NCBI GenBank assembly: GCA_045631405.1
Contig: JAZQUT010000090.1
Location: forward strand, 5,896-69,895
DNA length: 64,000 nucleotides
Source of the DNA: Acutalibacteraceae bacterium
GTDB lineage: Bacteria; Bacillota; Clostridia; Oscillospirales; Acutalibacteraceae
Reading direction: 5' to 3'
In this document: one piece after another, positions 38,797 through 55,904 of the stretch
How the letters are laid out: each line of letters opens with the position of its first letter
Position numbering within the stretch: the stretch's first letter is position 1
The notes under the pieces: generated by a model
Database searches by the model: none
What the model was told of the DNA's origin: nothing
The model's input: only the letters and a program-made list of their open reading frames with translations
Made by a program: the position numbers and the translations under genes

Positions 38797-39700
38797 TTTT
38801 CGTGACACCTTCCGTCAATGGTATGACGGTGCAATAAGCCTTGATGAAAAAATATCTCAAGGTAAAGAAGAGGCTCATATCACAAAGGAAGAGCCTAAAA
38901 AGAAAATTCCTACAATCAATTCAATTGAAAACAAGGAAATGCAGATTTCCTCAAGACTTTATAAAATCCTTTGTGTTGTATTCTGTCTTATCTTATGTGG
39001 AATTCTTATCGGTATGGTTAATTTCCTCCCTCTTTTTGCAAGAGAGAACACTCCTACTGTCAACGAGGTTTCTGACCACTATGTTGAAAATGGCAGAGAT
39101 GAAACCGGTGCTGTAAATACTGTTGCAGGTATGATTCTCGACTATCGTGCCTTTGACACCTTGGGCGAGTCCTTTGTGCTTTTCACTGCAACCTGTGCAG
39201 TTTTACTTCTTCTTGAGCAATCTGAAAAAGAAGATGGTAAAAAGAAGAATGTAAAAAAGGAAGCATTTTTATACAAACATGACCCTATTGTCTGCACAAT
39301 AGTTAAAATTCTTATTCCCATTATTTTTGTTTTCGGAGTTTACATTTTATTCAATGGTCACCTCTCCCCCGGTGGTGGATTTTCAGGTGGTGCTATTCTC
39401 GGCGCAGGCTTCATTCTTTTCGCTATGGCATTCGGTGAAGAAAAGGCAGCAAAGGTATTCACTCCAAAGCTCATTCGCATCGTTACCATTTGTTCACTCT
39501 CCTTCTACTGCCTTGCAAAGAGCTATTCGTTTTTTACAGGCAACGAATTCAACGGTGTTCATTCAATCATATCAAGTGGTACACCCGGCAATTTCCTCTC
39601 AGGTGGTCTGATTCTCCCCTTGAACATTGCTGTTGGTTGCGTTGTTTGCTGTACTATGTATAGCTTCTATATGTTATTTAAAAGGGGGCGTCTGGATTGA
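38786..39700 (+). CDS. mrpB: Mrp/Mnh antiporter subunit B (MnhB domain with a hydrophilic N-terminal extension)
   Basis: ETGAVNTVAGMILDYRAFDTLGESFVLFTA is the MnhB signature. RBS GAGGTG. Confidence 0.75.
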   Translation: MKNNFRDTFRQWYDGAISLDEKISQGKEEAHITKEEPKKKIPTINSIENKEMQISSRLYKILCVVFCLILCGILIGMVNFLPLFARENTPTVNEVSDHYVENGRDETGAVNTVAGMILDYRAFDTLGESFVLFTATCAVLLLLEQSEKEDGKKKNVKKEAFLYKHDPIVCTIVKILIPIIFVFGVYILFNGHLSPGGGFSGGAILGAGFILFAMAFGEEKAAKVFTPKLIRIVTICSLSFYCLAKSYSFFTGNEFNGVHSIISSGTPGNFLSGGLILPLNIAVGCVVCCTMYSFYMLFKRGRLD

Positions 39701-40074
39701 ATCTTCTTATAAACTATGAAGAAGCTACCTCTATGATATTATTTGCCATAGGCTTCACTATGTTGGTTTTCTCAAAAAATCTGTTAAAGAAAATTATGGG
39801 GCTCAATATTATGGACACAGGCATTTATCTTTTCCTCGCCTCTATGGGCTACATTGAAAACAAGCTCTCTCCCATAGTTCCCTCAACAGGTAATGTCAAT
39901 GCTTCAGATTATATTAACCCTATACCTACAGGACTTGTTCTTACAGGTATCGTTGTTTCAGTCAGCGTTTCGGCACTTATGCTTGCGCTCACAGTAAGGC
40001 TATATAAAAAATTCCATACTCTTAACCTTGACGAAATTTACGAAAAATGCAATAAAGAGGAGGAAGATGAATAA
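39697..40074 (+). CDS. mrpC: Mrp/Mnh antiporter subunit C (NuoK-like)
   Basis: 125 aa with 3 TM segments. IMGLNIMDTGIYLFL resembles NuoK/MnhC. Confidence 0.75.
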   Translation: MNLLINYEEATSMILFAIGFTMLVFSKNLLKKIMGLNIMDTGIYLFLASMGYIENKLSPIVPSTGNVNASDYINPIPTGLVLTGIVVSVSVSALMLALTVRLYKKFHTLNLDEIYEKCNKEEEDE

Positions 40075-41582
40075 TGGATTTCATTCAGAATTTCCCCTTT
40101 ATAACAATTGTTCTTTCTCTTTTTTGCTCCATTATTGCTTTTGGCTTCAAGGGGAAAAATGCTCGTTTTGTAACCTATTTCCTCTTAATCAGCTCGGCGA
40201 TAATGTCCTTAAGCGTAATCATTTACAACAGCACTGTTGGTGACGGCTATTTTGTTTACAGAATGGGTCATTATGATGCTCCTATAGGTAACGAAATTTC
40301 TGCAGGCTTTTTAGAGCCATTCTTCGCCTTATTATTCGAAGCAGTTATTTTCCTTGCTATCACAGGTGGGTCAAAGAAGATTTTTGAAGATATAAAAGAA
40401 GCCAAGCAAAAATTCTTTTATATAATGGTAAATCTTACTCATGCAGCTTTAGTTGCATTGTGCTACACCAATGATATTTTCACAGCTTATGTTTTCATTG
40501 AAATCTGTACAATTGCATCCTGCTCGCTGCTGATGCTTCGCTCATCAGGAAGATCCCTTGTTGCAGCAACAAGATATATGATCTTCAGTCTTATAGGCTC
40601 AGCCTTCACACTTATCGGTATAATCCTTCTGTATTCTATAACCGGACATTTGCTTTTCCCTCAGCTTTATTCTACATTACACGCTCTTTGGGAAACCGGC
40701 AGCTACACAATGCCCCTGACAATATCCTTAGGTCTTTTAATTTGTGGTCTTGCAATAAAAAGTGGTCTTTTCCCCTTCCACTTCTGGATGCCCGACACCT
40801 ACGGAACTGCAACACCTGCTGCATCGGGTATTTTATCGGGTGTTGTTTCAAAGGGCTATATATTCCTTCTTTTCAAAATTATTTACAGAGTTATAAGCGT
40901 AGAGATTTTCCTTGATTCAGGTATTCATTATCTTATTTTCGCATTAGGTATTCTTGGAATGATATTTGGTTCTGTGGCAGCAATAAATGCAAAAAACATA
41001 AACTTTATGATAGCTTTCTCCTCTGCTGCTCAGATTGGCTATATCTATATGGGCTTAGGCCTTGGTACAAAAGCTGCTTTAGTGGCTTCTCTTTTCCAGA
41101 TTACTGCCCACGCTCTTACAAAGCCCCTGCTTTTCCTTTCTGCTTCAGGGCTTTCTCAGACAGTTTCAGGAAAACAGAGTTTCTCTGCCATCGCATCCTC
41201 AGGCCATAGCAACAAAATCGCAGGCATGACCTTTGGCGCAGGTGCACTTTCAATGATTGGTATTCCCATATTTGCTGGCTTCGTGCCAAAGCTACTTTTC
41301 GGTATGTCGGCATTCGGACACGGAATTGAAACCTATCTGGTTTTGATTGCTCTTGCAATAAGTACAATTCTTAATGTGGTTTACTTCCTGAGAACAACAG
41401 TCAACATTTTCGGTCCTAAGAAGAAGGAGATTAAAAGAAGGTCTATAACCTTTAAGGATTCAAAGGCTTTCTCTGTTGTTACTCTTACTATGGCAGTAAT
41501 GAATATCGCTGTTGGTCTTAATTCTCAACCCTTTATTACCTTTTTCGAAAAAGGTATTGAAATCTTTTCAACTATGAGGTAA
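40074..41582 (+). CDS. mrpD: Antiporter-like subunit, MrpD/NuoN type (copy 1)
   Basis: LFPFHFWMPDTYGTATPAASGILSG is the proton-conducting membrane transporter motif. Confidence 0.8.
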   Translation: MDFIQNFPFITIVLSLFCSIIAFGFKGKNARFVTYFLLISSAIMSLSVIIYNSTVGDGYFVYRMGHYDAPIGNEISAGFLEPFFALLFEAVIFLAITGGSKKIFEDIKEAKQKFFYIMVNLTHAALVALCYTNDIFTAYVFIEICTIASCSLLMLRSSGRSLVAATRYMIFSLIGSAFTLIGIILLYSITGHLLFPQLYSTLHALWETGSYTMPLTISLGLLICGLAIKSGLFPFHFWMPDTYGTATPAASGILSGVVSKGYIFLLFKIIYRVISVEIFLDSGIHYLIFALGILGMIFGSVAAINAKNINFMIAFSSAAQIGYIYMGLGLGTKAALVASLFQITAHALTKPLLFLSASGLSQTVSGKQSFSAIASSGHSNKIAGMTFGAGALSMIGIPIFAGFVPKLLFGMSAFGHGIETYLVLIALAISTILNVVYFLRTTVNIFGPKKKEIKRRSITFKDSKAFSVVTLTMAVMNIAVGLNSQPFITFFEKGIEIFSTMR

Positions 41583-41587
41583 TTTTA

Positions 41588-43033
41588 ATGGCTATAATTA
41601 TTTCAATTTTATTCCCTTTTATCTGTGGAATAAGTATGTTATTAATCAAAAAAATAAATAAACGCTCCTTAAAATCAGTGCTTACTGTAGCTTTACAGGT
41701 TGTTCAGACAATTTTAGCCCTAGGCGTTGTAATAGGAGATGAGGTATCTTCGGGTAGCTTCAGCTTCGTCGATGGTCTTTCTTTAGGCTTTACCTCCGAT
41801 ATTACTGCTAAGGTTTTCTGTGCAATTGTTTCAGTCGCATGGCTTCTTGTTACAATTTATGCCTGTGTTTATATGAAGCACGAAGAAAAGGAAGAACGAT
41901 TTTTCCTTTTCTCCTTCCTTACTCAAGGCGCTATGATGGGTGCAATTCTCTCAAATACTCTTATTTCTATGTATGTGTTCTTTGAGCTTGTTACTCTTTT
42001 CTCTGCACCCTTAGTGCTTCATTCTCTTTCCAAGGAATCTATTGCTGCTGCAAAGAAATATCTTTACTATTCTGTTGCAGGTGCATTTATGGCACTTTTC
42101 GGGATTTTCGTTCTGGCAACAAATGCATCAACTCTTACATTCTCTTCAGCAGGCGTTATTACTGAGGCTACTCCTCTCGTTTTGGCAGGTGCATTCTCAA
42201 TGTGCATCGGCTTTGGTGCAAAGGCTGGTCTCTTCCCCTTGCACGGATGGTTGCCTACTGCGCATCCCGTTGCTCCTGCTCCTGCAAGCGCACTCCTTTC
42301 AGGTATTATCGCAAAAATCGGTGTTCTCGCAATTATAAGAACTGTTTTCTTCACTGTTGGCGCTGAAAACATCTCAGGCACTTGGGTTCAGACTGCACTT
42401 TTGGCTTTATCTCTTCTCACCGTGCTTATGGGCTCAATGATGGCTTATAAAGAAAAGATTTTCAAGAAAAGACTTGCATATTCAACTGTCAGCCAGATTT
42501 CTTATGTTTTAACAGGTCTTTTCCTTTTCACCGAAGCCGGCTTTGAGGGTGCCTTATGGCAGATTCTCTTCCACGCCATTGTTAAGGTTGGCTTGTTCCT
42601 TTGTGCAGGTGCTGTTATTTTCCTTTATGGTAAAACACAGGTCAGCGAGCTTTCAGGCATCGGCAAAAAAATGCCTGTCACATTCGCTTGCTTCACAGTT
42701 TTATCATTATCTCTTATCGGTATTCCTCCTACAGGTGGATTCTTCAGCAAATGGCATCTTGCAACAGCTTCATTAGCTAATGCTGATATTGGTGCTTTCT
42801 CTTGGCTTGCGCCTGTAATTCTTCTTATTTCAGCGCTTTTAACTGCAGGCTATCTCCTCTATATTGTTATAAAAGCATTCTGGGGAAAAGACGACTCAGA
42901 GGCGGATGCAAAAAAAGAGCCTTTGCCTATGACTATTCCTTTGATAATTCTTTCAGCTCTTGCACTTTTTGGTGGCATCTTCTCTCAGGAAATAGGTGCA
43001 GCTCTTTCTGCAGTTTCTCAAGCAATTTTTTAA
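41588..43033 (+). CDS. mrpD: Antiporter-like subunit, MrpD/NuoM type (copy 2)
   Basis: LFPLHGWLPTAHPVAPAPASALLSGIIAKIG. Confidence 0.8.
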   Translation: MAIIISILFPFICGISMLLIKKINKRSLKSVLTVALQVVQTILALGVVIGDEVSSGSFSFVDGLSLGFTSDITAKVFCAIVSVAWLLVTIYACVYMKHEEKEERFFLFSFLTQGAMMGAILSNTLISMYVFFELVTLFSAPLVLHSLSKESIAAAKKYLYYSVAGAFMALFGIFVLATNASTLTFSSAGVITEATPLVLAGAFSMCIGFGAKAGLFPLHGWLPTAHPVAPAPASALLSGIIAKIGVLAIIRTVFFTVGAENISGTWVQTALLALSLLTVLMGSMMAYKEKIFKKRLAYSTVSQISYVLTGLFLFTEAGFEGALWQILFHAIVKVGLFLCAGAVIFLYGKTQVSELSGIGKKMPVTFACFTVLSLSLIGIPPTGGFFSKWHLATASLANADIGAFSWLAPVILLISALLTAGYLLYIVIKAFWGKDDSEADAKKEPLPMTIPLIILSALALFGGIFSQEIGAALSAVSQAIF

Positions 43034-43045
43034 GAGGTAATTTTA

Positions 43046-44497
43046 ATGAACAATACAATTCTTCTTATTCCGATTTTCTTTCCGATAATCATGGGAATAA
43101 TTTCATTTTTAATTCCTTTTAAAAATCAAAAGGCTCATAATTTATTTATAGGTCTTTCAATTGTTATTTCCTCCCTTTCGGTATGGCTTTCGGTATTCAA
43201 TTCTTCAGAAGGCTCGTTGGTTATTCTCACCTTTACCAACAACCTTGATTTTGCTTTGAATTTTGATGGTGCAGGTAAAATATTTGCTTGCCTTTCTGCA
43301 ACTCTTTGGCCCCTGACTGCTTTGTATGCCTTTGATTATATGAAGCACGAAAAGCATCTTAAAATGTTCTACTGCTTTTTCACAATGTCATTTGGTGCCA
43401 CAATGGGTATTGCTATGGCAGGTAATTTGCTTACAATGTACCTCTTTTATGAGCTTCTCACGCTTTTCACAATTCCACTTGTTATGCACGGAATGAAGCA
43501 TATTCATAAAAAAGCTGCAAGAAAATATATGGTATTTTCTATTGGTGGAGCAGCATTTGCCTTCACAGGCGTTGTTTACCTTATTATAAACAATGCAAAC
43601 ACCTTCGTTTTCGGTGGACACATTATTAATCCTGAAGATCCTACTATTGCAGCTATACTCTTTATTTTCACATTTATGGGCTTGGGCGTTAAGGCTGCCA
43701 TATTCCCCTTGCACAGTTGGCTCCCCTCAGCATCAGTTGCGCCAACACCTGTTACAGCCTTACTTCACGCAGTTGCAGTTGTTAAAGCAGGTGCCTTCGC
43801 TCTTATAAGATTGGTTTATTATTCCTACGGAACTGAATTCCTTAAAGGAAGCTTGGCTCAGGATATTACAATGGCAATCTGCATTTTCACCATTCTTTAC
43901 GGCTCTATAAGTGCATTAAAGCAGCCTCATTTCAAGCGCAGATTGGCTTATTCAACAATTTCCAATCTTTCTTATATCACCTTCGCAGTCACTCTTATGT
44001 CAAAAGCAGGGCTTATAGCTGCCTTCTGTCATCTGATTTTCCATTCAGTTATTAAAATCGGTGCATTCTTCTGCGCAGGCTCTGTTCTTCATAATTCAAA
44101 AGAGGAATATATTAACAGGCTTGAGGGTCTTGGAAGAAAAATGCCATTAACCTTTGGCTTCTTCGCTGTTTTCGCCTTAGGTCTTACGGGTATTCCTCCT
44201 CTCTGTGGATTTTTCAGCAAATGGTATATTGCCCTTGCTTCTGTTGACAATGGCTCATCCTTTGCAATCGCAGGCGTTATTGTTCTTTTAATTTCAGCCT
44301 TCCTTACAGCCATTTATATGCTTTCGCCTGTAATCAAGGCATTCTTCCCATCAAAAGATGCTACGAGCAATTCCAAGGCAAAGGAAGCAAATTGGAGAAT
44401 GCTTGTTCCTATAGGTATTTGTGCAGTTTTATGTATCCTTTTAGGAATCTTTGCACAAGCACCCATAAATTTAATTGAAGGGGTGTTAGGAATATGA
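43046..44497 (+). CDS. mrpD: Antiporter-like subunit, MrpD/NuoM type (copy 3)
   Basis: IFPLHSWLPSASVAPTPVTALLHAVAVVKAG. Confidence 0.8.
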   Translation: MNNTILLIPIFFPIIMGIISFLIPFKNQKAHNLFIGLSIVISSLSVWLSVFNSSEGSLVILTFTNNLDFALNFDGAGKIFACLSATLWPLTALYAFDYMKHEKHLKMFYCFFTMSFGATMGIAMAGNLLTMYLFYELLTLFTIPLVMHGMKHIHKKAARKYMVFSIGGAAFAFTGVVYLIINNANTFVFGGHIINPEDPTIAAILFIFTFMGLGVKAAIFPLHSWLPSASVAPTPVTALLHAVAVVKAGAFALIRLVYYSYGTEFLKGSLAQDITMAICIFTILYGSISALKQPHFKRRLAYSTISNLSYITFAVTLMSKAGLIAAFCHLIFHSVIKIGAFFCAGSVLHNSKEEYINRLEGLGRKMPLTFGFFAVFALGLTGIPPLCGFFSKWYIALASVDNGSSFAIAGVIVLLISAFLTAIYMLSPVIKAFFPSKDATSNSKAKEANWRMLVPIGICAVLCILLGIFAQAPINLIEGVLGI

Positions 44498-46557
44498 ATC
44501 TGATTACAATTATCTGTGTTTTCTTCCCCTTTATTGCAGCAATAGCGACCTATTTTATAGGCAAACAGAATGATTTAATCCGTAATGCTCTCACTATTGT
44601 CTCTTGCCTTGCCGTTTTAGGCGTTATGGCATACGGAGTATTTGGTGGAATTGAAAACGAAGCTACCTACGCTCTTCTTTCAATGAAATTCTCTTTCAGT
44701 GGATTTCAGGGCACCTATGGCTTAATAACTGCATTCATGTGGTTCTGCGCAGCCTTACTTTCTCCACAATACTTCAAGGGTCATCATAATTTACCGAGAT
44801 ATTATTTGTTCTTCCTGTTTACTCTTGGTGCTACAATGGGTGTCTTCCTTTCAGCAGACCTTATTACTACCTTTATTTTCTTTGAAATAATGTCCTTTAC
44901 CTCTTACACATGGGTTGTGCAGGATAAAAACAAGGATGCCATTGCTGCAGGTAAAACCTATCTTACAGTTGCAGTTATCGGCGGTATGGTTTGCCTGATG
45001 GGCCTTTTCCTTCTTCATAGTATTACAGGTACCCTTGTTATAAACGAACTTTATTCAGCCCTTAAAGGCGCACAAAAGACCACAGAGCTTTATATAGCTG
45101 CCTTCTGTATGCTTGTTGGCTTTGGCGCAAAGGCAGGTCTTTTCCCTCTTCACATCTGGTTACCAAAGGCTCATCCTGTTGCGCCTGCACCTGCAAGTGC
45201 TTTGCTTTCAGGTGTGCTTACAAAAACAGGCGTTTTCGGAATGTTGATTATAACAAGCCGTATTATGATTGAGGATGAAATATGGGGCTATACCCTTCTT
45301 ATTCTCGGAACAATAACAATGGTTCTTGGGGCAGTATTAGGTGTTCTTTCAACTAATTTAAAAAGAACTCTCGCCTGCTCATCGCTTTCCCAGATTGGCT
45401 TTATAACTGTTGGTGTTTCTATGATTTGCCTTTTAGGTGAACACAACGCCCTTGCAGCAAACGGAACAGTTCTTTATATGCTTAATCACTCAATTGTCAA
45501 GCTTGTTCTTTTCCTTGGTGCAGGTGCAATTTACTTAGGAGCACATACACTTGATATAAACAAGCTCAGAGGCTACGGCAGAAACAAGCCTTTGCTTGCA
45601 ACAACCTTTTTAATTGGTGGATGCAGTCTTGCAGGTATTCCAGGCTTTTGTGGCTATCTTTCAAAAACTCTTGTTCACGAAAGTATTGTTGAATACATTC
45701 CCCACGGCTTATTTTTAATTAATGTAGTTGAATGGTTATTCCTTTTCTCAGGTGGTCTTACTGTTGCTTATGTTTTAAAGCTTTTCGTAACCATCTTTAT
45801 AGAAAAGCCTACAGAAGATACACCAAAAGGAAATAAGCTTACAAAGCTTTCTTCTCTGGCACTTGTTCTCTCTGCAGTAGCACTTCCCATAATCGGCGTG
45901 CTTCCCCATAAGCTTGCAGAAAAAATCAGTCTTAATATGGTGCATTTCATATTCGGACATGATTTCGCACACCAGGTTCATTACTTTGCCTTTGTCAATC
46001 TTAAGGGCGTTATCATCTCATTAGCAATCGGTATTTCAGTTTATTTACTGGTAATACGCAAACTGCTTATGAAAACCGAAAATGGAAGAAAAGTTCATTA
46101 CAATCCCCTTGCAGATAAATTCTCTGTTGAGGAAAACATTTACAAACCTGCTTTCAGGCTCATTATAAGGCTTGTAGGGCTCGTTTGCTCAGGCTTTGAT
46201 AAAATCCCTGACTTGTTAATAAAAGGTGGTTTATTCGCTCTGGTGGTCATTTGTCGCGCATTCTGCGACATTACGGATATTATCATCCTCCTTCTCAGCA
46301 AAACAGTTTTCCGATTTGCGAAGGATCCCGTAGAGCCTATCAGACATCGTTACTCCTATGCACTCGGTAATTTCCTTGACAAGCATAGCAAAGACCCCGA
46401 AAATGCCCATCTTTCAGACACACTTGTTAGAGCTGCTGAAACTCTTCAAAAGACAACGGACAGAATCTCAAAGGGCTTCGACTTTGCTTTGTTTATGACC
46501 TGTCTTGGTGTATGTCTGATACTTTTATTCCTTTTCTTGTATAAATACTTTAATTAA
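44494..46557 (+). CDS. mrpA: Antiporter-like subunit, MrpA/NuoL type with a long C-terminal extension and terminal TM anchor, lacking the fused MrpB-like domain
   Basis: LFPLHIWLPKAHPVAPAPASALLSGVLTKTG. After ~480 aa comes a ~200-aa extension with amphipathic stretches, ending in a TM segment (LGVCLILLFLFLY). This is compatible with a NuoL-type lateral helix. Confidence 0.75.
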   Translation: MNLITIICVFFPFIAAIATYFIGKQNDLIRNALTIVSCLAVLGVMAYGVFGGIENEATYALLSMKFSFSGFQGTYGLITAFMWFCAALLSPQYFKGHHNLPRYYLFFLFTLGATMGVFLSADLITTFIFFEIMSFTSYTWVVQDKNKDAIAAGKTYLTVAVIGGMVCLMGLFLLHSITGTLVINELYSALKGAQKTTELYIAAFCMLVGFGAKAGLFPLHIWLPKAHPVAPAPASALLSGVLTKTGVFGMLIITSRIMIEDEIWGYTLLILGTITMVLGAVLGVLSTNLKRTLACSSLSQIGFITVGVSMICLLGEHNALAANGTVLYMLNHSIVKLVLFLGAGAIYLGAHTLDINKLRGYGRNKPLLATTFLIGGCSLAGIPGFCGYLSKTLVHESIVEYIPHGLFLINVVEWLFLFSGGLTVAYVLKLFVTIFIEKPTEDTPKGNKLTKLSSLALVLSAVALPIIGVLPHKLAEKISLNMVHFIFGHDFAHQVHYFAFVNLKGVIISLAIGISVYLLVIRKLLMKTENGRKVHYNPLADKFSVEENIYKPAFRLIIRLVGLVCSGFDKIPDLLIKGGLFALVVICRAFCDITDIIILLLSKTVFRFAKDPVEPIRHRYSYALGNFLDKHSKDPENAHLSDTLVRAAETLQKTTDRISKGFDFALFMTCLGVCLILLFLFLYKYFN

Positions 46558-46560
46558 TAC

Positions 46561-46598
46561 AAAAAAACACCGACTTACTAATCGTAAGTCGGTGTTTT
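46561..46598. terminator. Bidirectional stem-loop terminator
   Basis: ACACCGACTTAC (46567-46578) pairs with GTAAGTCGGTGT (46584-46595). An A-run lies before the hairpin and a T-run after it. Confidence 0.75.
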
Positions 46599-46601
46599 AA
46601 A

Positions 46602-47069
46602 TTATTTACTAAAATCCTGAAGAGCTTTTCCTGACATACGGTAAATTGTCCAATCCTCCAAGGGCTCTGCTCCGAGAGAAAGATATAAATCAATGCTTGG
46701 CTTATTCCAATCAAGGCATACCCACTCAAATCTTCCACAATCTCTTTCCACTGCAATTCGTGCAAGCTTCTTAAGCAAGCCCTTTCCATAGCCTCTGCCT
46801 CTATATTCGGGCTTAACAAAAAGGTCCTCAAGATAAAGGCCTGATTTCCCAAGGAAGGTTGAAAAATTATGGAAAAAAAGAGCAAAGCCTACCTCTTTTT
46901 CATCCTCTAAAGCAAAAATTACCTCGGCTTTTTTCTCTTCGAAAATCCATTTACGAAGAAGGTCAGCATCTGCCACAACCTCATCTGACATTTTCTCGTA
47001 TTCGGCAAGCTCCTTGATAAATTCTAATATTTTATCGACATCATTTACCGTTGCAAATCTGAAATTCAT
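46602..47069 (-). CDS. GNAT family N-acetyltransferase
   Basis: VKPEYRGRGYGKGLLKKLARIA (the Q/RxxGxG/A acetyl-CoA motif). The protein is 155 aa. Confidence 0.8.
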   Translation of the reverse strand: MNFRFATVNDVDKILEFIKELAEYEKMSDEVVADADLLRKWIFEEKKAEVIFALEDEKEVGFALFFHNFSTFLGKSGLYLEDLFVKPEYRGRGYGKGLLKKLARIAVERDCGRFEWVCLDWNKPSIDLYLSLGAEPLEDWTIYRMSGKALQDFSK

Positions 47070-47084
47070 AATATTATCTACCTT

Positions 47085-48164
47085 TTATTTTTTCTCAGTC
47101 TCATAGTCAAAGGTATAGTCCCCGAAGCCTGATGAATAAAGCTGCTCACCATCGGGCATTACCCACATAGCCTCAATATTTTCTGTTTTATCAACGAGAG
47201 CCTTGCCCTCCTCATAGCTCATAAGGAAAAGTGCAGTTGAGAATGCATCGCCTAAGCCTGAATCATTGGTTATAACAGAAACTGATTTAAAATTAACTCC
47301 GGGCATTAATGTTTTGGGGTCAATTATATGGTGATAGTTTTCGCCATTAACAACATAATATCGCTGATAAGAGCCACTTGTTACAATAGACTCTCCTGCA
47401 ATTTTGATATATTCGATATAGGGCTTCTCTTCATTTTCCGTATCAGGATTTTCAATACCTGCCTTCCAAGGCTCGCCATCACCTGAAGAGCCTACTGTAC
47501 GAATATTTCCACCTACATTAAGAAGAAATCCTTCAATACCCTTTTCCTCTAAATAGTCACCGATTTTTTCAACTGCATAGCCCTTTGCAATAGCACCCAC
47601 ATCAAGCTTCATAAGAGGGTCTGCAAGATAAACTGTGTTTTTCTCTTCGTCGATTATCAAATCATTTATATCTGTATGCTTGTTGGCTTCCTCCAATTTA
47701 TCCATAGGTGGTAGCTGAGCAATTGATGGATCGCTGATGCCCTCATTTCTGTAAATATGCCAGATAGACAAAACGCTACCCATGGCAATATTTACCATAC
47801 CATCTGTTTTCTCATACATTTCCTTTGCAAAAAGAAGCATATCGATGATTTTCTCATCAACCTCAACCACCTGATGCTTTCCATCTGTCACATCATTTAT
47901 GGTCACAAGATTGGTGAAATTTTCAAAACGGTTATAAATAGTGAAAAGTCTGTGGTATTCATTTAAAAGCGCTGTTATTTCTTCGCATATTGCATCAAAC
48001 TCTTCTTTTGTTTCTGTATAACCAATTATTGTTGTAGCTGTATCAAAGTAATCAAAGTAATATGCAGAATATTTTGTCTTTTCAGAAGCTTTGCAAGAGG
48101 CAAAGGAAAGCGCTTGCAAAACCACCAAAGCTATTACTAAAATCAGAGAAACTGTCTTTTTCAT
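47085..48164 (-). CDS. apbE: FAD:protein FMN transferase (ApbE family lipoprotein)
   Basis: Signal/lipobox ...LSFASC, and LDVGAIAKGYAVEKI is typical of ApbE. I prefer the ATG at 48164 (MKKTVSL...). Confidence 0.85.
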   Translation of the reverse strand: MKKTVSLILVIALVVLQALSFASCKASEKTKYSAYYFDYFDTATTIIGYTETKEEFDAICEEITALLNEYHRLFTIYNRFENFTNLVTINDVTDGKHQVVEVDEKIIDMLLFAKEMYEKTDGMVNIAMGSVLSIWHIYRNEGISDPSIAQLPPMDKLEEANKHTDINDLIIDEEKNTVYLADPLMKLDVGAIAKGYAVEKIGDYLEEKGIEGFLLNVGGNIRTVGSSGDGEPWKAGIENPDTENEEKPYIEYIKIAGESIVTSGSYQRYYVVNGENYHHIIDPKTLMPGVNFKSVSVITNDSGLGDAFSTALFLMSYEEGKALVDKTENIEAMWVMPDGEQLYSSGFGDYTFDYETEKK

Positions 48165-48244
48165 TTTTTCACCACCATTTACCACTCAATATTAGTAAAA
48201 AAGGGATGTTGCGAGAGCAACATCCCCCTGTAATCACTTAATGA

Positions 48245-49312
48245 TTAAGCAACCTTAGCAGCAGCTGAAGCAGCTTTGATCATATCACCGATAGCCATTG
48301 TGCAGCCTGCAGTTGCAAGGTCGCCTGTAGCGTAACCATCTTCACCTGCAAGAGCAGCGAAATCAGCAGCAGTTTTGCCTACAAGAGCTGCATCGAAAGC
48401 AGCTGCCTGAGCATCCCACTCTTTAACTTCGCCTTCAGAGCCATCGTGCTTTGTGCCGTATGCAGCCATACCATAGTCTGCACCGAGCTCAAGCTTTGTC
48501 TTGATAGCAGCTGTTGTATCAGCTGTTACAGCGCCCTTAGCGTCAAATGTCAACTTACCCTGTGTGCAGTCTGTCTTAGCAACAACAACCTTGCCTTCAG
48601 CGTCAACAACAGTAGCTACTACTGTAGAGTCGATCTGATCAAGACCTTCTGCATCTTCAGAAGCATCCTTGTTTGAGTAAGATGCTGAAGAAACGATAGC
48701 GATGCTGAGCTTGTCGTCAGCTGTTGCTTCAGATTCAGCTGCATTAGCAACTGCTTTTTCAAGAGCGTTGATGAATTCAGCAACGTTGATTGTGCAGCCT
48801 GCTGTTGCAAGATCACCTATTGCATACATATCTTCGCCTGCAAGAGCCTTTACTTCTTCGAATGTTTTGCCGATTGCTTTTTCCATGAATACGTCAGCCT
48901 GTTTGTCCCATTCAAGAACTTCACCTTCTGAACCATCATGCTTTGTACCATATGCTGCCATACCGTAGTCGGTACCTTTTTCATACTTTGTTCTGAAGTC
49001 CTCAGTAGCAACGATTTTGCCTTCTGAAGTCCAAGCAGTTTTGATCTGTGCTGTGTCAAGGTCGATAGCAACGATCTTGTTGTCAGCGTCAAGAAGAACA
49101 GCAACACCAGTTGTGTTGAATTCGCCTGCGCCGTTTGTGTCGCCGTCTGCATCCTTTGCATTAGCGAGATTTGCAACTACACCCATACCAAACTTTAATG
49201 TGGTAGCTGTATCCTTGCCTGCGTCTGCATCTGTATTATTGCCACAGCCAACCATAGCGATAACTGAGAAAGCTAAAACAATAACAAGTGCAATACTAAT
49301 AAATTTTTTCAT
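48245..49312 (-). CDS. Lipoprotein made of two tandem FMN_bind-like modules with a non-canonical GDLATAGCT motif
   Basis: Lipobox AMVGC (C23). Residues ~39-190 and ~200-355 are paralogous. An identical 18-mer DYGMAAYGTKHDGSEGEV occurs at 115-132 and 279-296. GDLATAGCT occurs at 166-174 (nt 48791-48817) and 330-338 (nt 48299-48325). Confidence 0.6.
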   Translation of the reverse strand: MKKFISIALVIVLAFSVIAMVGCGNNTDADAGKDTATTLKFGMGVVANLANAKDADGDTNGAGEFNTTGVAVLLDADNKIVAIDLDTAQIKTAWTSEGKIVATEDFRTKYEKGTDYGMAAYGTKHDGSEGEVLEWDKQADVFMEKAIGKTFEEVKALAGEDMYAIGDLATAGCTINVAEFINALEKAVANAAESEATADDKLSIAIVSSASYSNKDASEDAEGLDQIDSTVVATVVDAEGKVVVAKTDCTQGKLTFDAKGAVTADTTAAIKTKLELGADYGMAAYGTKHDGSEGEVKEWDAQAAAFDAALVGKTAADFAALAGEDGYATGDLATAGCTMAIGDMIKAASAAAKVA

Positions 49313-49415
49313 GTCTAATTTCTCCTTTTAGAGTTTTAGGCATATTGCCGTGAACATTATGTCAAATTTTTCACATTTTGTCAATGCTTTTATAGAATTA
49401 ACAAAAAAATTTAAA

Positions 49416-49919
49416 TTATATCTTATATTTTTCTAATCTTTTTAAAAGCAACGCCCCTGCAAGACCGATAAACACTCCTGCTATTGTACCCGTAACAGCA
49501 AGAACTGCCATATAATAGCCAATCTGGACCGTATCAAAAAGCACTATTGCCACGAGAATCTGTCCCAGATTATGAGCAACGCCACCAACAATGCTTGTTC
49601 CTACCACAGAAAGCTTATCACTCTTTTTGCAAAGAGCCATCAGCAAAAGGCTTAATGCCGCACCTGCAAAGCTATATGCAAGAGTCATAACATTACCGAA
49701 AAGAAGAGCAACAATAAACAATCTGATTACAGAAACTATTGCAGCCTCTTTAACACCAAAGCGATATAGCAGGAAAATTATAACCATATTGGGGAATCCC
49801 ATTTTTATACCGGGAATGGCAGCCCATATAGGAGGTAAAATCGCCTCTATATACGAAAGCACCAATGCAACCGAGGTCAGAACCCCGAGAAATGCAACTC
49901 TCTTCGTTTTATTCTTCAT
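49416..49919 (-). CDS. Gx transporter family membrane protein (Hpre_diP_synt_I-like)
   Basis: RVAFLGVLTSVALVLSYIEAILPP start, 5 TM segments. Its position next to a NusG-II protein and ApbE is, to my recollection, typical of this family. I prefer the ATG at 49919 (RBS GGAGAG). Confidence 0.65.
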   Translation of the reverse strand: MKNKTKRVAFLGVLTSVALVLSYIEAILPPIWAAIPGIKMGFPNMVIIFLLYRFGVKEAAIVSVIRLFIVALLFGNVMTLAYSFAGAALSLLLMALCKKSDKLSVVGTSIVGGVAHNLGQILVAIVLFDTVQIGYYMAVLAVTGTIAGVFIGLAGALLLKRLEKYKI

Positions 49920-49940
49920 ATTGCTCTCCAACAAATAAAA

Positions 49941-50354
49941 TTAAATTGCCACGTCCAAGTCCATATCAGTATTATCACCGACAATTTCAATCACAACCTT
50001 ATGAGGCAGACAGACAATTGTTCTGCCTACATGAGAAATAGGTCTGTAATCCTCACAGATACCATCAGGGCAATTTGCATCAGCTACACTGACCTTACCG
50101 TCTTCAATAACAACTATATTATAGTCTTCGTCATTTTCGCCGGTTTTAATTTCGAATTCAATATTTTCCTCAAGAGAATATCTCTGAGTTTCAACGCCAT
50201 CAATTTTAACAACGACGCTATTCCCCTCCACCTTTGTTAAATTCATTAACAAAAGTACTGCCACCGCTATTATTAAAATAACGGCGGCAAGAATACCATC
50301 ATTGCGAAATTTTCTTTTCTTCTGAGAAGAAACTTCATTTTCGCGTATTTTCAT
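49941..50354 (-). CDS. NusG domain II-containing membrane-anchored protein
   Basis: TM anchor followed by VVVKIDGVETQRYSLEE...VIEDGKVSVADANCPDGICEDYRPISHVGRTIVCLPHKVVIEI, the pattern of this family. Confidence 0.65.
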   Translation of the reverse strand: MKIRENEVSSQKKRKFRNDGILAAVILIIAVAVLLLMNLTKVEGNSVVVKIDGVETQRYSLEENIEFEIKTGENDEDYNIVVIEDGKVSVADANCPDGICEDYRPISHVGRTIVCLPHKVVIEIVGDNTDMDLDVAI

Positions 50355-50357
50355 AAA

Positions 50358-51173
50358 TTACTCAATCGTTCCTTCGTAAAAATCTACTGCTTTTATACAA
50401 TTAGTTACGCAAGTATTGAAGCATTCTCTACAACCAGAGCATTTATCATAATCAATTCTTGCAAGGTTATTCTCAACCTTAATTGCATTATATTCACAAG
50501 CTCTTTCGCACTTTTTGCAGCCGAAGCAAACGTGTTTACATTTCTTTCTTGCAACTGCGCCTTTTTCAGGGTTGTTACACATAACAACAACCTTTGACTT
50601 TTTAGGAATAATGTCAATAACATTATTGGGACAAGCCTTAGCACACTTACCGCAAGCGATACATTTGTCGGGATTGATGTGAGCAAGAGAATCGTGGATG
50701 CAAATTGCATCTACGGGACAAGCTGCTGCACAGTCGCCACAACCGATACAACCAAATTTACATGATGAAGGACCACCGTAAACATATTTAGCTGCCTTAC
50801 AGCTGTCAATACCATCATAAATTACATCATAATCAACAGCGTTGCAATCACCATTACAGAATACGAATGCAACCTTTTCCTCTGTTGCAGAAACCTCAAC
50901 GCCCAAGATATCAGCGAGCTGAGAAACAACATCTGCACCACCGGGAATACAAAGATTTGCTTCTGCTTTGCCTTTCGCAACTGCCTCTGCATAGCTGTCA
51001 CAGCCTGCATAACCGCAAGCGCCACAGTTTGCACCAGGAAGACAAGCACGGATATTTACAACCTTTTCGTCCTCTTCAACCTTAAAAAAGTGAGAAGCTA
51101 AAACAAGAAGAATACCTGCTACTATACCAACAACTGCCACTACAAGAAGGGCTGTTAAAATAGCTGTTACCAT
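50358..51173 (-). CDS. rnfB: Rnf complex subunit B (polyferredoxin)
   Basis: N-terminal TM segment, CGACGYAGC, then several CxxCxxCxxxCP ferredoxin motifs. Confidence 0.9.
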   Translation of the reverse strand: MVTAILTALLVVAVVGIVAGILLVLASHFFKVEEDEKVVNIRACLPGANCGACGYAGCDSYAEAVAKGKAEANLCIPGGADVVSQLADILGVEVSATEEKVAFVFCNGDCNAVDYDVIYDGIDSCKAAKYVYGGPSSCKFGCIGCGDCAAACPVDAICIHDSLAHINPDKCIACGKCAKACPNNVIDIIPKKSKVVVMCNNPEKGAVARKKCKHVCFGCKKCERACEYNAIKVENNLARIDYDKCSGCRECFNTCVTNCIKAVDFYEGTIE

Positions 51174-51188
51174 TTTTTAAAATCCTCC

Positions 51189-51803
51189 TTAAGCAAACAA
51201 ATTGTCTACAACTCCGGCAAAGCCGAAGAATGCCAATGAAATGAATGATGCTGCAATAAGTGTTACGGGAAGACCCTTAAAGCTTTCAGGAATATTGCTT
51301 TCATCAATACGAGAACGCATACCTGAGAAGAGAACCATAGCCAACAAGAAGCCAAGTCCACATCCCAATGAGCTTACCATTGATGTAAGGAAGCCGTTAG
51401 ATTCCAATGCACCGTAATCAATAATATTATTGATTGTAACACCTAATACTGCACAGTTTGTTGTGATAAGAGGAAGATAAACGCCCAAACTCTTATGAAG
51501 AGAGGGAATGAATTTCTTCAACACAATTTCAATAAACTGAACCAATGCAGCAATAACAAGAATAAATACGATTGTCTGAGTGTATTCAAGTCCGAGAGCC
51601 TCGAGAACATATTTCTGAATAGGCCATGTTACTGCAGAAGCAACAAGCATAACGAAGATAACGGAAATACCCATACCAACTGCCTGATTAAGCTTCTTTG
51701 AAACACCGAGGAAGGGACAAATACCAAGGAACTTGTTAAGAACATAGTTGTTAACAAGAACTGAGGACATCAAAATAACTACTAAACCTTTAAAAGTATC
51801 CAT
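51189..51803 (-). CDS. rnfA: Rnf complex subunit A
   Basis: VNNYVLNKFLGICPFLGVS signature. 204 aa, 6 TM segments. Confidence 0.9.
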   Translation of the reverse strand: MDTFKGLVVILMSSVLVNNYVLNKFLGICPFLGVSKKLNQAVGMGISVIFVMLVASAVTWPIQKYVLEALGLEYTQTIVFILVIAALVQFIEIVLKKFIPSLHKSLGVYLPLITTNCAVLGVTINNIIDYGALESNGFLTSMVSSLGCGLGFLLAMVLFSGMRSRIDESNIPESFKGLPVTLIAASFISLAFFGFAGVVDNLFA

Positions 51804-52496
51804 TTATTTGTCCTCCTTTTCTTCTTTTTCTGCACAGCCACCGTTGCAAACACCTGCTGAGGGACAGCCTGCACAAGAAAATTCTTTTTTCTTAATTACT
51901 TTACCCTTTGTGATTTTATTTACAAGAGCAATCATTACACCGTAAACCACCAAACCACCGGGAGCCTTTGCGAAGAACTCAATTGTATGAGTGCTGATAA
52001 AGGGAATTTCAATTCCTGCAAATGTACCTGCACCTAAAACCTCTCTGATTGTTGCAATAGCAACGATAGCGAGTGTAAAGCCAATACCCATACCGATACC
52101 GTCAAGAGCAGATTTTCCTACACTGTTTTTGCTTGCAAACATTTCTGCTCTGCCAAGAATGATACAGTTAACAGTAATAAGAGCAAGGTAAACACCGAGA
52201 AGCTCATACATTTCGGGAAGGAATGCGTGCATAAACATCTGAACCATTGTAACAAAGCCTGCAATAACAACGATATAGCAAGGAATTCTTACAGTATCAG
52301 GAATGAATTTACGAAGTAAGGAAATTACTATATTAGAGCATATAAGAACTGCCATTGTAGCAAGACCCATACCAATCGCACCAACCACAGTTGTGGTTGT
52401 TGCGAGGGTAGGACAAGTACCGAGAATAAGAACGAATACAGGGTTCTCACGGAGCAAGCCCTTTAATAAAACTGACATATTACTATCTTTTTTCAT
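51804..52496 (-). CDS. rnfE: Rnf complex subunit E (with extra Cys-rich C-terminal tail)
   Basis: ENPVFVLILGTCPTLATT signature. The tail is KKKEFSCAGCPSAGVCNGGCAEKEEKEDK. Confidence 0.88.
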   Translation of the reverse strand: MKKDSNMSVLLKGLLRENPVFVLILGTCPTLATTTTVVGAIGMGLATMAVLICSNIVISLLRKFIPDTVRIPCYIVVIAGFVTMVQMFMHAFLPEMYELLGVYLALITVNCIILGRAEMFASKNSVGKSALDGIGMGIGFTLAIVAIATIREVLGAGTFAGIEIPFISTHTIEFFAKAPGGLVVYGVMIALVNKITKGKVIKKKEFSCAGCPSAGVCNGGCAEKEEKEDK

Positions 52497-52498
52497 AA

Positions 52499-53671
52499 TC
52501 AGGCCACCCCTTCCAAGATTTTCACAGCTTCAAAGACCTTTGAAACACCTGTCTTATAGCCGTTTGTCGTAATTGTTGCACCGCTGATTGCATCAATTTC
52601 GCTGTAGTTTGTTTCATCCTTACCATTAAACTGTGAATAGAAGGATGCGTCAGCACAAGTAGAACCGATACCATCAGTTTCCTTCTGTGAAATAGTCTGA
52701 CAAGCAAGAATCTTACCATCAGCAGTAACAGAAACCTTAATATTGATATATTCACCTGAGGGATTGTAATAATGGTCACCATTAATACCGAAGCCTGAAG
52801 CGTGAAGCTCAAATACATAGTTACCACTTGTTGTCTTATACGCCTTATCAATTGCAGTGGGCATATTTTCATAGCCGGTAATATCAATTTCAGTAGATTC
52901 TGATGAAGCAACCAACTGGGCATTTGCGCTCATAACTGTCTTAACATCATCGGAAACTGAGCTTAATACATTACCCTCGCTGTCAACTGCGATAAATTCC
53001 TCACCTGAAACGAATACATAACCGACACCATTATCTGCAGCATATACAGCAGATACATCAGTAAGAGCCTCAGTTACAAACCACTGAGTGAACGCGCCCT
53101 CGCCTGCTGGTAATGCTTCCTTAAGGTTATCTGCAAGAATTTCCTCTTCGCTTCTGATATCAACAGAGCCACCGCCGAGGATAATAGCAGTATTAAGAGC
53201 ATCCTTAAGAGCATCCTTATAAGCCTGAGTTGTCATTGTTGCACCTGATAAGGTTGCAAGACCCTCAATTGTGTCAGCAGTAAAGCCTGCTACTGTGTCG
53301 CCATAGGTTTTCTCAACACCCAAGGTTTCGTTGCTTGAAAGGCATGTAGCACCAGTAATTTCACCTGCGGCACTAACGCCACACATAATTACCATATCTG
53401 TACCATAGCCTGCTGTTGTAAGCTTTACAACATATCCGCCGCCTGCTTCAGAGTGAACCTCTGTTACAGTTGTGGGAAGCTCATAGGTTGAAATATCAAC
53501 GGGAGCAAAATCTGTTCCCTCCGGCATAACAATAACCAAAGCTTCGTTTGCTGCAGAGGATGCATTTTTTTCTATAATAGGAGCAGTTACATAATTTGTC
53601 ACAGCTAAAAGAGTAGCAACTACTGCACAAATAACTGTTAACGAAATAACGCTTTTAATGTACTTTTTCAT
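52499..53671 (-). CDS. rnfG: Rnf complex subunit G with two FMN-binding domains (390 aa)
   Basis: N-terminal TM segment and two flavinylation-type motifs, TLSGATMTTQAY and AISGATITTNGY. From memory, typical RnfG is roughly 200 aa with a single such motif. Confidence 0.85.
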   Translation of the reverse strand: MKKYIKSVISLTVICAVVATLLAVTNYVTAPIIEKNASSAANEALVIVMPEGTDFAPVDISTYELPTTVTEVHSEAGGGYVVKLTTAGYGTDMVIMCGVSAAGEITGATCLSSNETLGVEKTYGDTVAGFTADTIEGLATLSGATMTTQAYKDALKDALNTAIILGGGSVDIRSEEEILADNLKEALPAGEGAFTQWFVTEALTDVSAVYAADNGVGYVFVSGEEFIAVDSEGNVLSSVSDDVKTVMSANAQLVASSESTEIDITGYENMPTAIDKAYKTTSGNYVFELHASGFGINGDHYYNPSGEYINIKVSVTADGKILACQTISQKETDGIGSTCADASFYSQFNGKDETNYSEIDAISGATITTNGYKTGVSKVFEAVKILEGVA

Positions 53672-54597
53672 TTCTTTCCTCCTCCAAACAATTTACGCGC
53701 GGTAAGAGAGCTGATGAAAGGATTGAGAATGTTCATAAGAAGGATACCAAAGGATACACCCTCGGGATATACACCCCAGAAACGAATCAAAACCGTAATA
53801 ACGCCTGCGCCGATACCGAAAACAATTTTTCCGAGAGGAGTTGCAGGTGATGTTACATAATCAGTTGCCATAAAGATAGCACCTAAGATAAGACCACCGG
53901 AAAGAACACATGCAAGTGCTGCAACTGCATCAAAATCTTTAACAATAAAGCTTAAAAGGAAGGTTGTACCGATAAATGCTACGGGAATATGCCATGTGAT
54001 TACCTTACGGATAAGAAGGTAAACGCCACCGATAAGAAGAGCAACCTTGCAGGTTTCACCGATTGCGCCACCTGTATTACCTAAGAAGAGGTCCATAAGC
54101 TCCGGAACTGTACCCTCAGCAAGCTCTGCAAGAGGAGTTGCAGATGAAACTGCATCCACATTTACGGGCATTGCACTCTGAGCCAATGATCCGAAGGCAA
54201 TAAGCATAAACACACGAGCTGTTGCTGCAGGGTTAACAAGATTTTTACCTAATCCACCGAAGAGGCATTTTACAACTACAATTGCAAATATTGAGCTAAT
54301 AGCAGCCTGCCATAACGGAACATTTGCAGGAAGATTCAATGCGATAATCAAGCCTGTTACAATGCTGCTTAAATCACCGATTGTCTGCTGCTTTTTAACT
54401 GCAAGATTAAAAAGAACCTCAGAAAGAACTGCAGACGCAACACAAACACCGATAACCGCTAAGGAACTCAAGCCGAAGATTACAACACCTGCAATAGTTG
54501 CGGGTAAAAGCGCGATTATAACATCGAGCATTATGCCTCGGGTTGTTCTTTTAGCGCGTATATGAGGTGATACGGAAATATGAAGTTTGTTTTCCAT
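53668..54597 (-). CDS. rnfD: Rnf complex subunit D
   Basis: ISVSPHIR start and the VDAVSSATPLAE flavinylation motif. I prefer the ATG at 54597 (a TAATG overlap with the rnfC stop). Confidence 0.9.
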   Translation of the reverse strand: MENKLHISVSPHIRAKRTTRGIMLDVIIALLPATIAGVVIFGLSSLAVIGVCVASAVLSEVLFNLAVKKQQTIGDLSSIVTGLIIALNLPANVPLWQAAISSIFAIVVVKCLFGGLGKNLVNPAATARVFMLIAFGSLAQSAMPVNVDAVSSATPLAELAEGTVPELMDLFLGNTGGAIGETCKVALLIGGVYLLIRKVITWHIPVAFIGTTFLLSFIVKDFDAVAALACVLSGGLILGAIFMATDYVTSPATPLGKIVFGIGAGVITVLIRFWGVYPEGVSFGILLMNILNPFISSLTARKLFGGGKK

Positions 54598-55904
54598 TAT
54601 GCATTCGCCTCCTTTTCTTTCCATTCACGAAGAGCTGCTTTAGCTAATTTATTAACCTGTACAAGAGGACGCTTTGCAGGACAGTTGTATGCGCAGCAAC
54701 CACATTCCATACATAAATCTGAGCCTAATTTACCAAGGCGCTCATATTCGCCCTTATCGTATGCTCTTGCAATTTCTGTTACATTAAGACCCATGGGGCA
54801 ATTGTTTGTACAAGTACCACACTGAATACATGCAGTTTCCTTTGCACCCTTTGCATCCTTTTCAGTAAATGCCAGAAGAGCATTTGTCTGCTTGAGAACG
54901 GGCTCGTCCAAGGAAGGAATTGAAACACCCATCATAGGACCACCATAGAGCACCTTGCCGGGCTCACTTGAAAAGCCACCTGCAAATTCAAAAACATCCT
55001 CAACTCGAATACCGATAGGTACGATTACATTTTTAGGACTCTTTACTGCGCTTCCGTCAACAGTTATGCATTTTTCAACAAGAGGCATACCTGTTTTGAA
55101 GTAGTTACCCAATGTAGCCATTGTAGTACAGTTGCAAACAACGCAACCAACATCAATAGGAAGCTTGCCTGCACCAATCATTCTGCCTACTGCACGGTAA
55201 ACCAAAACCTTTTCTCCACCTACGGGATACTTAGCAGGAAGAACCTTAACGCTTACATTCGCCATTTTATCAGCAATCTCATTCATTTTCTTAATTGCCT
55301 CAGGCTTATTTTTTTCAACAGCGATTACAACCTTTTCAGCCTCTGCATATTTTGCAATCACTTCAATTGCATATGCAATATCGTCTGCTTTTTCAAGCAT
55401 TGTGTAGGTATCGCTTGTGATATAAGGCTCACACTCTGCACCGTTAATAATAAGATACTCGATTTTCTTATCAGTTGTAAATTTAGCATAAGTCGGGAAG
55501 CCTGCACCACCAAGGCCAACAACACCACTTGCTTTAATTGCATCAATAAGAGAAGCCTTATCATTAATAACAGGTGCTGTGATATTTTCGTCAGGTGTCA
55601 TTTCACCGTCAGAGTCTATCAATATAGCAGGCACCTTTGTACCATTGGAAATAAATACATCTGAAACGCCAACTACATTACCGGAAACACTGGCATAAAT
55701 CGGAGAAGAAAGACCCTCACCTGCACTGGCAACCAAAGCACCGAGATGAACATGGTCACCTGCTTTAACAACAGGAATCGCCGGCTTGCCGATATGCATA
55801 ACAGTAGGAAGAGTTACTGTATTATCAATAACCATTCGCTCTGCAGGAGCACCGGCTGTGTTTTTTCTGTGAGGCAACTTTATGCCTTTAAGAGAAAAAG
55901 CCAT
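54597..55904 (-). CDS. rnfC: Rnf complex subunit C
   Basis: GLGGAGFPT (NADH/FMN site) and two 4Fe-4S motifs, CIQCGTCTNNCP and CMECGCCAYNCP. Confidence 0.9.
   Translation of the reverse strand: MAFSLKGIKLPHRKNTAGAPAERMVIDNTVTLPTVMHIGKPAIPVVKAGDHVHLGALVASAGEGLSSPIYASVSGNVVGVSDVFISNGTKVPAILIDSDGEMTPDENITAPVINDKASLIDAIKASGVVGLGGAGFPTYAKFTTDKKIEYLIINGAECEPYITSDTYTMLEKADDIAYAIEVIAKYAEAEKVVIAVEKNKPEAIKKMNEIADKMANVSVKVLPAKYPVGGEKVLVYRAVGRMIGAGKLPIDVGCVVCNCTTMATLGNYFKTGMPLVEKCITVDGSAVKSPKNVIVPIGIRVEDVFEFAGGFSSEPGKVLYGGPMMGVSIPSLDEPVLKQTNALLAFTEKDAKGAKETACIQCGTCTNNCPMGLNVTEIARAYDKGEYERLGKLGSDLCMECGCCAYNCPAKRPLVQVNKLAKAALREWKEKEANA

Follow-up and report, generated by a model that had tools for sequence, protein, structure and literature searches.

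The DNA analyzed here is a 64,000-nt window from an Acutalibacteraceae bacterium (assembly GCA_045631405.1, contig JAZQUT010000090.1, positions 5,896-69,895; all coordinates below are those of this window), in which a gene for a 355-residue lipoprotein (48245-49312, minus strand) lies between an rnf operon and the gene for the flavin adenine dinucleotide (FAD):protein flavin mononucleotide (FMN) transferase ApbE (47085-48185, minus strand; PF02424, E 2e-68). From its family-wide conservation pattern and gene context, we predict with good confidence that the lipoprotein is a surface protein with two domains of the FMN-bind2 type, that ApbE loads FMN on a conserved threonine of each domain, and that the protein serves as an extracytoplasmic electron carrier. 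The gene order given by an earlier note on this DNA, that is, rnfB (50358-51173), a membrane-anchored NusG_II protein (49941-50354; PF07009, E 2e-30), a Gx (Hpre_diP_synt_I) membrane protein (49416-49934; PF07456, E 2e-36), the lipoprotein, and ApbE, all on the minus strand, agrees with the open reading frames and Pfam. The rnfD, rnfG, rnfE, rnfA, and rnfB genes, identified by Pfam, occupy positions 50358-54624 (minus strand) directly upstream of the NusG_II gene.

At its N-terminus the lipoprotein has a signal peptide with a lipobox (AMVG-C23). The lipid-attachment residue Cys23 (codon 49244-49246, minus strand) is invariant in 115 close homologs and at least 90% conserved in a wide alignment of the family (A3; 105 proteins with a mean column identity of 31%). 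The mature part is an internal duplication of two modules, approximately residues 37-195 and 199-355, which are 48% identical (E 3e-37) and share the 18-mer DYGMAAYGTKHDGSEGEV (residues 115-132 in the first, 279-296 in the second). At the DNA level its copies differ at 8 of 54 bases, which indicates that selection on the protein, and not recent gene conversion, accounts for the identity. In the AlphaFold2 models of the two-domain protein (predicted local distance difference test score, pLDDT, 89; predicted template-modeling score, pTM, 0.86) and of a single module (48728-49204, minus strand; pLDDT 91), each module is formed by three long strands of 14-15 residues followed by helices, with G-K-T between two helices and A-G-C-T just ahead of the last helix. 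These results bear out the earlier description of two paralogous modules with a shared 18-mer and a layout of a β-rich part, GKT, and AGCT before a helix. A loop Y-G-T-K-H-D-G-S-E-G-E-V (residues 121-133 and 285-297), situated between the Y-x-M and E-W motifs, is strongly conserved in both modules within the lineage; elsewhere in the family it varies or is missing.

Both modules contain the segment GDLATAGCT, which, as the earlier note had placed them, yields Cys173-Thr174 (codons 48791-48796, minus strand) in module 1 and Cys337-Thr338 (codons 48299-48304, minus strand) in module 2. The lipoprotein belongs to a large family: 1,093 homologous proteins came up in a word-indexed search, and HMMER, run exhaustively with a single module as the query, gave 931 representatives clustered at 50% identity, of which 65 had E-values of 1e-30 or better. 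In 319 aligned modules of the best 150 of these 931 representatives, the four motif positions read AGCT in 185 cases, SSVT in 22, ASVT in 19, SGCT in 12, and ASCT in 6, with AGAT, SGAT, AGVT, AGTT, and others among the rarer versions. The last position is occupied by Thr in almost all modules and by Ser in a few, whereas the preceding position (-1 relative to the Thr) is Cys in approximately two thirds and Val, Ala, Thr, or Ile in the remainder. Accordingly, Thr174 and Thr338 are among the few columns of A3 conserved at 90% or more, and Cys173 and Cys337 are not; homologs drawn from whole genomes show the same fixed Thr and variable Cys. Since the Thr is near-invariant while the Cys varies, the Thr is the candidate acceptor and the Cys its -1 neighbor.

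The earlier note had offered two alignments of this segment with the canonical ApbE acceptor motif D-x-x-[ST]-G-A-[ST]. One of them, with a one-residue insertion that sets A-G-C-T against S-G-A-T and makes Thr174 and Thr338 the acceptors, agrees with the profile alignments, which put Thr on Thr; the ungapped one, which puts the Cys on the acceptor position, does not. The proposal of the note that the Cys marks a different linkage or cofactor or a non-flavinylated protein is not supported, the Cys being replaced in about one third of the modules next to a near-invariant Thr. Compared with the canonical motif, the lipoprotein agrees at position 0 (Thr174 and Thr338) and has Cys at -1, Gly at -2, Ala at -3, Leu at -6, and Asp at -7. 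According to the mutagenesis data in a review (PMC12052999), an Ala-to-Val replacement at -1 retains approximately 50% of flavinylation and an Asp-to-Ala replacement has only a minor effect; since substitutions at both places are tolerated, Cys or Val at -1 and a shifted Asp are compatible with ApbE. We consider that A-G-C-T is likely to be the version of S-G-A-T used by this family, with no role of its own for the Cys at -1.

The profile of A3 matches one solved structure, the FMN_bind protein 2KZX (E 4.6e-8). The alignment pairs Y-x-M with G-Y-K-M, E-W-x-E-Q-A with E-W-H-E-Q-A, and A-g-C-T-I-k-V with S-G-A-T-I-K-V, and the family Thr falls on the Thr of D-A-I-S-G-A-T. The matched segment of 2KZX scores 26 bits, the gathering threshold of Pfam FMN_bind being 22, and the FMN_bind model is reached unaided, and weakly, by three of the 105 family members (best E 1.6e-4). 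In addition, one relative (P0218, described as 'FMN-binding protein' by its source) combines a canonical FMN_bind domain, with the site D-G-V-S-G-A-T, and two modules of this family. When the module profile was compared by hhalign with 32 RnfG-type FMN_bind domains from genomes of the class, the Thr was again aligned with the Thr, and G-K-T with G-K (P 1.3e-3). Thus the resemblance to FMN_bind claimed in the earlier note stands at the level of profiles, whereas a Foldseek search of the PDB gave no significant match. We consider the modules to be remote relatives of FMN_bind; profile comparison establishes this relation within the C-terminal half, whereas over the entire domain it is only plausible. 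The features shared with the classical domain (PF04205; NqrC, RnfG, and 2KZX) are Y-x-M, E-W-x-E-Q-A, the turn with G-K, and an acceptor Thr that precedes the last helix, as well as ApbE as the modifying enzyme, which is a prediction for the lipoprotein. Unlike the classical domain, the module is approximately twice longer, has long strands, and differs at positions -1, -3, and -6 of the motif.

These differences are in keeping with the FMN-bind2 subtype (Huang, Meheust, Barquera, Light, mSystems 2024, PMC11334425). FMN-bind2 is described there as a domain of approximately 160 residues, compared with the core of approximately 120 residues in FMN-bind1, that is commonly present two or four times per protein; its insertions lengthen the β-strands, and the resulting pairs of neighboring domains form pseudo-symmetric units, each with two sites for flavin. 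BLAST served to identify the subtype; its exemplars, the two-domain NTW96865.1 and the six-domain WP_312031774.1, have no InterPro identifier. As far as this description goes, the lipoprotein resembles FMN-bind2 in module length (the relatives match over approximately 145-157 residues per module), in the number of modules (two here; among the best 150 representatives mostly two, several with four, one with six, and a few with one or five), in the lack of InterPro and Pfam annotation, and in being a predicted extracytoplasmic ApbE substrate. The three 14-15-residue strands per module and the high pTM of the two-domain model are compatible with a paired-sheet unit of the FMN-bind2 kind. In the present case the gene is attached to an rnf operon, and the motif reads A-G-C-T in this lineage and S-S-V-T in the members from the electron-transfer loci considered below, the part of the FMN-bind2 description at hand giving no motif. 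A cluster look-up of ten relatives returned neither NTW96865.1 nor WP_312031774.1 among its accessions. The modules fit the FMN-bind2 type, the match being to the published description rather than to the exemplars by alignment.

Single-module versions of approximately 180 residues were also observed (L058-L061 and L008, in genomes G022, G151, G004, G102, and others), mostly within the loci with an Ndh2-type dehydrogenase. They have the motif S-K-V-T and depart from the even number of domains reported for FMN-bind2; such proteins may pair as homodimers.

The gene context was analyzed in 26 loci; close relatives provided six of these, and the other twenty were taken from 300 sampled genomes belonging to the class; a search of loci with alignment A2 returned 6 loci. 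Family members are present in at least 30 of the 300 sampled genomes. The ApbE gene is directly adjacent to the homolog in 23 of the 26 loci and lies within 3.5 kb in 25 of them; thus the link to ApbE, read at a single locus by the earlier note, recurs in other genomes. Linkage to rnf is confined to the close relatives, which are metagenome-assembled genomes (MAGs) of Acutalibacteraceae or Oscillospiraceae. In 12 of the 20 class-wide loci the homolog occupies the position of PplA in a Listeria-type locus of extracellular electron transfer (EET), where the genes are ordered as a 660-residue NADH dehydrogenase of the Pyr_redox_2 family (Ndh2), polyprenyl synthase, UbiA prenyltransferase, NusG_II, Gx, the lipoprotein, and ApbE; this order was confirmed with Pfam in one locus. 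Members from the EET loci have the motif [D/E]-L-x-S-S-V-T, with an acidic residue at the canonical position -6. Lipoproteins of the same type are thus found in loci with Ndh2 as well as in loci with Rnf.

Genome G125, which is closed and 4.8 Mb in size, has exactly one ApbE, encoded beside the lipoprotein homolog in a complete EET-type operon (L046, G125:C1:3485000-3502000; Ndh2, polyprenyl synthase, UbiA, NusG_II, Gx, lipoprotein, ApbE), and contains no PF04205 (FMN_bind), PF03116 (RnfD/NqrB), or PF10029 (DUF2271) domain, the DUF3570, Flavodoxin_4, and FMN reductase substrates not having been searched for. Among the searched families, the sole ApbE would therefore be left without a substrate unless the lipoprotein is one.

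Two features of the class-wide loci are recorded here for their own sake. The EET-type operon of L046 adjoins a [FeFe]-hydrogenase-like gene and an arginine decarboxylase gene. Three loci (L051, L052, and L053, in G068, G211, and G237, respectively) have two tandem ApbE paralogs beside the lipoprotein homolog, followed by Gx and with a divergently transcribed Ndh2-like gene; the tandem paralogs may be specialized for different motifs.

Several observations weigh against the proposed role. The lipoprotein has no Pfam match even at E-values up to 1, below the PF04205 threshold, and no NCBIfam match below E 0.1, far under the cut-offs of that database. The hhalign probability against the RnfG-type domains is only 18%. 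For both AlphaFold2 models, Foldseek found no PDB chain at E 0.001 or better, and no FMN_bind structure is present among the 50 matches listed. Only Gly at -2 and Thr at 0 fit D-x-x-[ST]-G-A-[ST], since the Asp is at -7 instead of -6 and position -3 is Ala. We found no published flavinylation test of any FMN-bind2 protein, the domain being described from models and BLAST in PMC11334425. Further, the adjacency of ApbE in this genome is by itself a weak argument, because RnfG and RnfD already require the enzyme; the case for the lipoprotein as an ApbE substrate accordingly rests on the comparative data. Finally, the step that makes Rnf the electron donor depends on genes not being found in a MAG that is 97% complete.

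Four other explanations were considered. If Cys173 and Cys337 were themselves functional, they could hold a thiol-linked cofactor (an S-cysteinyl flavin or a thiophosphate ester) or act as redox or metal ligands. The Cys is indeed invariant in the 115 closest homologs and is the commonest residue at its position in the wider family, and an ungapped alignment counted from the Asp puts it at the acceptor position. In almost all members from the Ndh2-type EET loci, which have S-S-V-T, the position is nevertheless taken by another residue, as in the other modules with Val, Ala, Thr, or Ile, while the conserved residue is the following Thr or Ser, the one that profile alignments place on the flavinylated Thr of S-G-A-T. 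ApbE, moreover, transfers FMN to a hydroxyl group. We regard a function of the Cys as very improbable. Still further from being credible is an iron-sulfur scaffold or carrier domain similar to IscU or NifU. It is brought in by the best Foldseek matches, weak hits to IscU chains that are the only full-length ones among the matches listed (probability up to 0.99; template-modeling score 0.37-0.49), and by two features common to both proteins, a G-K-T...E helix and a Cys-Ser/Thr pair with which the last helix begins. As a functional lead this match was rejected, given E-values of 0.006 to 0.3 and root-mean-square deviations of 5-7 Angstrom, the lack of the three ligand cysteines (module 1 has only Cys173, which is not conserved in the family, and module 2 has Cys337 and one further Cys in the β-strand region), and the fact that the lipoprotein is exported and linked to ApbE rather than to Fe-S assembly genes. 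The common resemblance of FMN_bind-like modules and IscU in the models could reflect a deep relation of folds, or chance.

A non-covalent binder, either a flavin or FAD carrier feeding ApbE or a solute-binding lipoprotein that is not an ApbE substrate, is the least improbable of the four, though still unlikely. It would account for the departure from the canonical motif, counted at four of its seven positions, and for the neighboring gene of an FAD-export subunit, and flavinylation of this domain type is so far a prediction only. Against it, a near-invariant Thr or Ser at the exact acceptor position over hundreds of divergent modules would be difficult to account for if the residue were not modified, the family occupies the PplA slot in EET loci, and the sole ApbE of G125 would be without a substrate among the families searched. 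It is also rather improbable, somewhat more so than a non-covalent binder, that the protein is a dedicated accessory subunit of Rnf with no role outside it: the gene forms one block with rnfCDGEAB in the window and in five close relatives (L002-L005 and L007), and neither Ndh2 nor UbiA was seen in the genome, whereas none of the 20 sampled loci outside the lineage has the gene beside rnf, and the family is present in genomes without RnfD (G025, G125, G179, and G284).

The prediction of a flavinylated two-domain lipoprotein agrees with the functions ascribed to the neighboring genes. PF07456 is the family of the Listeria protein EetB, an energy-coupling factor (ECF) S-like subunit that binds FAD, that is, similar to the substrate-binding subunit of an ECF transporter; EetB is required for the export of FAD to flavinylate PplA, and eetB co-localizes with apbE in 2,169 genomes and with rnf in 572 genomes of Clostridia (Rivera-Lugo et al., mBio 2023, PMC9973259). 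This FAD-export role and co-localization account for the presence of the Gx gene at this locus. The NusG_II gene, a conserved partner of the Gx/EetB gene, adjoins Gx in 14 of the 26 loci; its product may be equivalent to EetA. The ApbE of the window is itself a lipoprotein, with a lipobox ending in SFAS-C.

Homology and gene context suggest the following scheme, from the covalent modification and its acceptor residue to the electron-carrier role. The lipoprotein would be exported and anchored by lipid at Cys23, while the EetB-like Gx subunit and its NusG_II partner would deliver FAD to the outside of the membrane. There the adjacent, likewise lipid-anchored ApbE would move the FMN part of FAD onto the hydroxyls of Thr174, the predicted first site, and Thr338, the predicted second one, forming phosphoester bonds. 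The two modules might pack through their extended β-sheets into one pseudo-symmetric unit with two flavins, and this unit could serve in electron transfer beyond the cytoplasm, in the manner of Listeria PplA.

The parallel with PplA drawn in the earlier note is supported by the 12 of 20 loci in which the homolog is encoded between the EetB-like gene and ApbE together with Ndh2 and the prenyltransferase. By architecture and gene context, the protein resembles PplA of Listeria monocytogenes in being a lipoprotein with two flavin-carrying domains (predicted in our case) encoded with an EetB-family FAD-export subunit and ApbE, called FmnB in Listeria, and its homologs from Clostridia are found in full Ndh2, polyprenyl synthase, UbiA, NusG_II, Gx, and ApbE loci. 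Unlike the PplA locus, the window has no Ndh2 and no DmkA/DmkB, which were not found in the genome by tblastn either, and the lipoprotein gene is fused to rnf instead. A further difference concerns the precursor lipoprotein of cAD1, which is related to PplA and has reported S(T)GAT sites (PMC7074142), whereas the lipoprotein has A-G-C-T and no Pfam FMN_bind match. The protein is not of a new type, since publications of 2018-2024 already cover its kind of domain, the FAD exporter, and a role like that of PplA.

The source genome is a MAG of 2.33 Mb, 97% complete. Whole-genome searches found one ApbE and one copy of the lipoprotein, and canonical FMN_bind domains only in RnfG, which has two. This RnfG (390 residues; 52499-53671, minus strand) is long compared with the RnfG-type open reading frames of the class, which have approximately 190-215 residues and one domain; its first site is L-A-T-L-S-G-A-T, without Asp, and the second one is D-A-I-S-G-A-T, while RnfD carries D-A-V-S-S-A-T. 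The doubled RnfG is retained in close relatives (394 residues in L002), and it is also found in G022, where the lipoprotein homolog is not beside rnf.

No Ndh2 and no prenyltransferase of the UbiA/MenA type was found in this 97%-complete genome by tblastn with Ndh2 and UbiA of L046, and the polyprenyl synthase of L046 gave one weak match only. Because these genes were not found, the Rnf complex encoded directly upstream becomes the candidate electron donor to the lipoprotein, a suggestion we make tentatively, considering it possible but on balance doubtful. Likewise doubtful is the extension of this scheme in which the flavin lipoprotein forms an off-ramp from Rnf in this lineage: electrons of ferredoxin or NADH would reach the lipoprotein with its two FMNs by way of the two-FMN RnfG, and would then be passed on to acceptors outside the cell or to extracytoplasmic reductases. 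If true, this would be Rnf-driven extracellular electron transfer in a gut anaerobe, replacing the Ndh2/demethylmenaquinone route. The Rnf-linked arrangement without a detected Ndh2 or prenyltransferase is the one aspect with some novelty, and provides a lead on extracellular electron movement in some gut Clostridia.

The family data reveal no new chemistry. They add a family-wide motif in which Thr or Ser is fixed and position -1 is C, V, or A, and the case of a sole ApbE for which the searched families offer no other substrate. For domains of this type, the working motif is relaxed, approximately [DE]-L-x-[SA]-[SGK]-[VCA]-[TS], which is of use in annotation and in the engineering of flavin tags. 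Since the lipoprotein has no match in Pfam and none below E 0.1 in NCBIfam, surveys relying on PF04205 miss these candidate ApbE substrates.

Other features of the locus were identified by consensus matching and Pfam. The 103-bp gap upstream of the lipoprotein gene contains a promoter-like site (49356-49384, minus strand), TTGACA with a 17-nt spacer and TG-CATAAT, which has 11 of 12 matches in a consensus scan, a result that is not evidence of function. The apbE gene is followed, 15 bp downstream and on the same strand, by a gene for a GNAT acetyltransferase (46602-47069, minus strand), whose position is not conserved in the relative L002. Downstream of the GNAT gene, a bidirectional terminator-like hairpin (46564-46598; a consensus match with a 15-bp stem and T-runs on both strands) would close the transcription unit. 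A Mrp/Mnh-like antiporter cluster (39697-46557, plus strand), with an Oxidored_q2 subunit and four Proton_antipo_M paralogs, the last of which has 687 residues and a long C-terminal extension, converges on the rnf-apbE block. In L002, the Mrp E/F/G genes are situated directly upstream of rnfC, which suggests a conserved Rnf-Mrp neighborhood of ion coupling.

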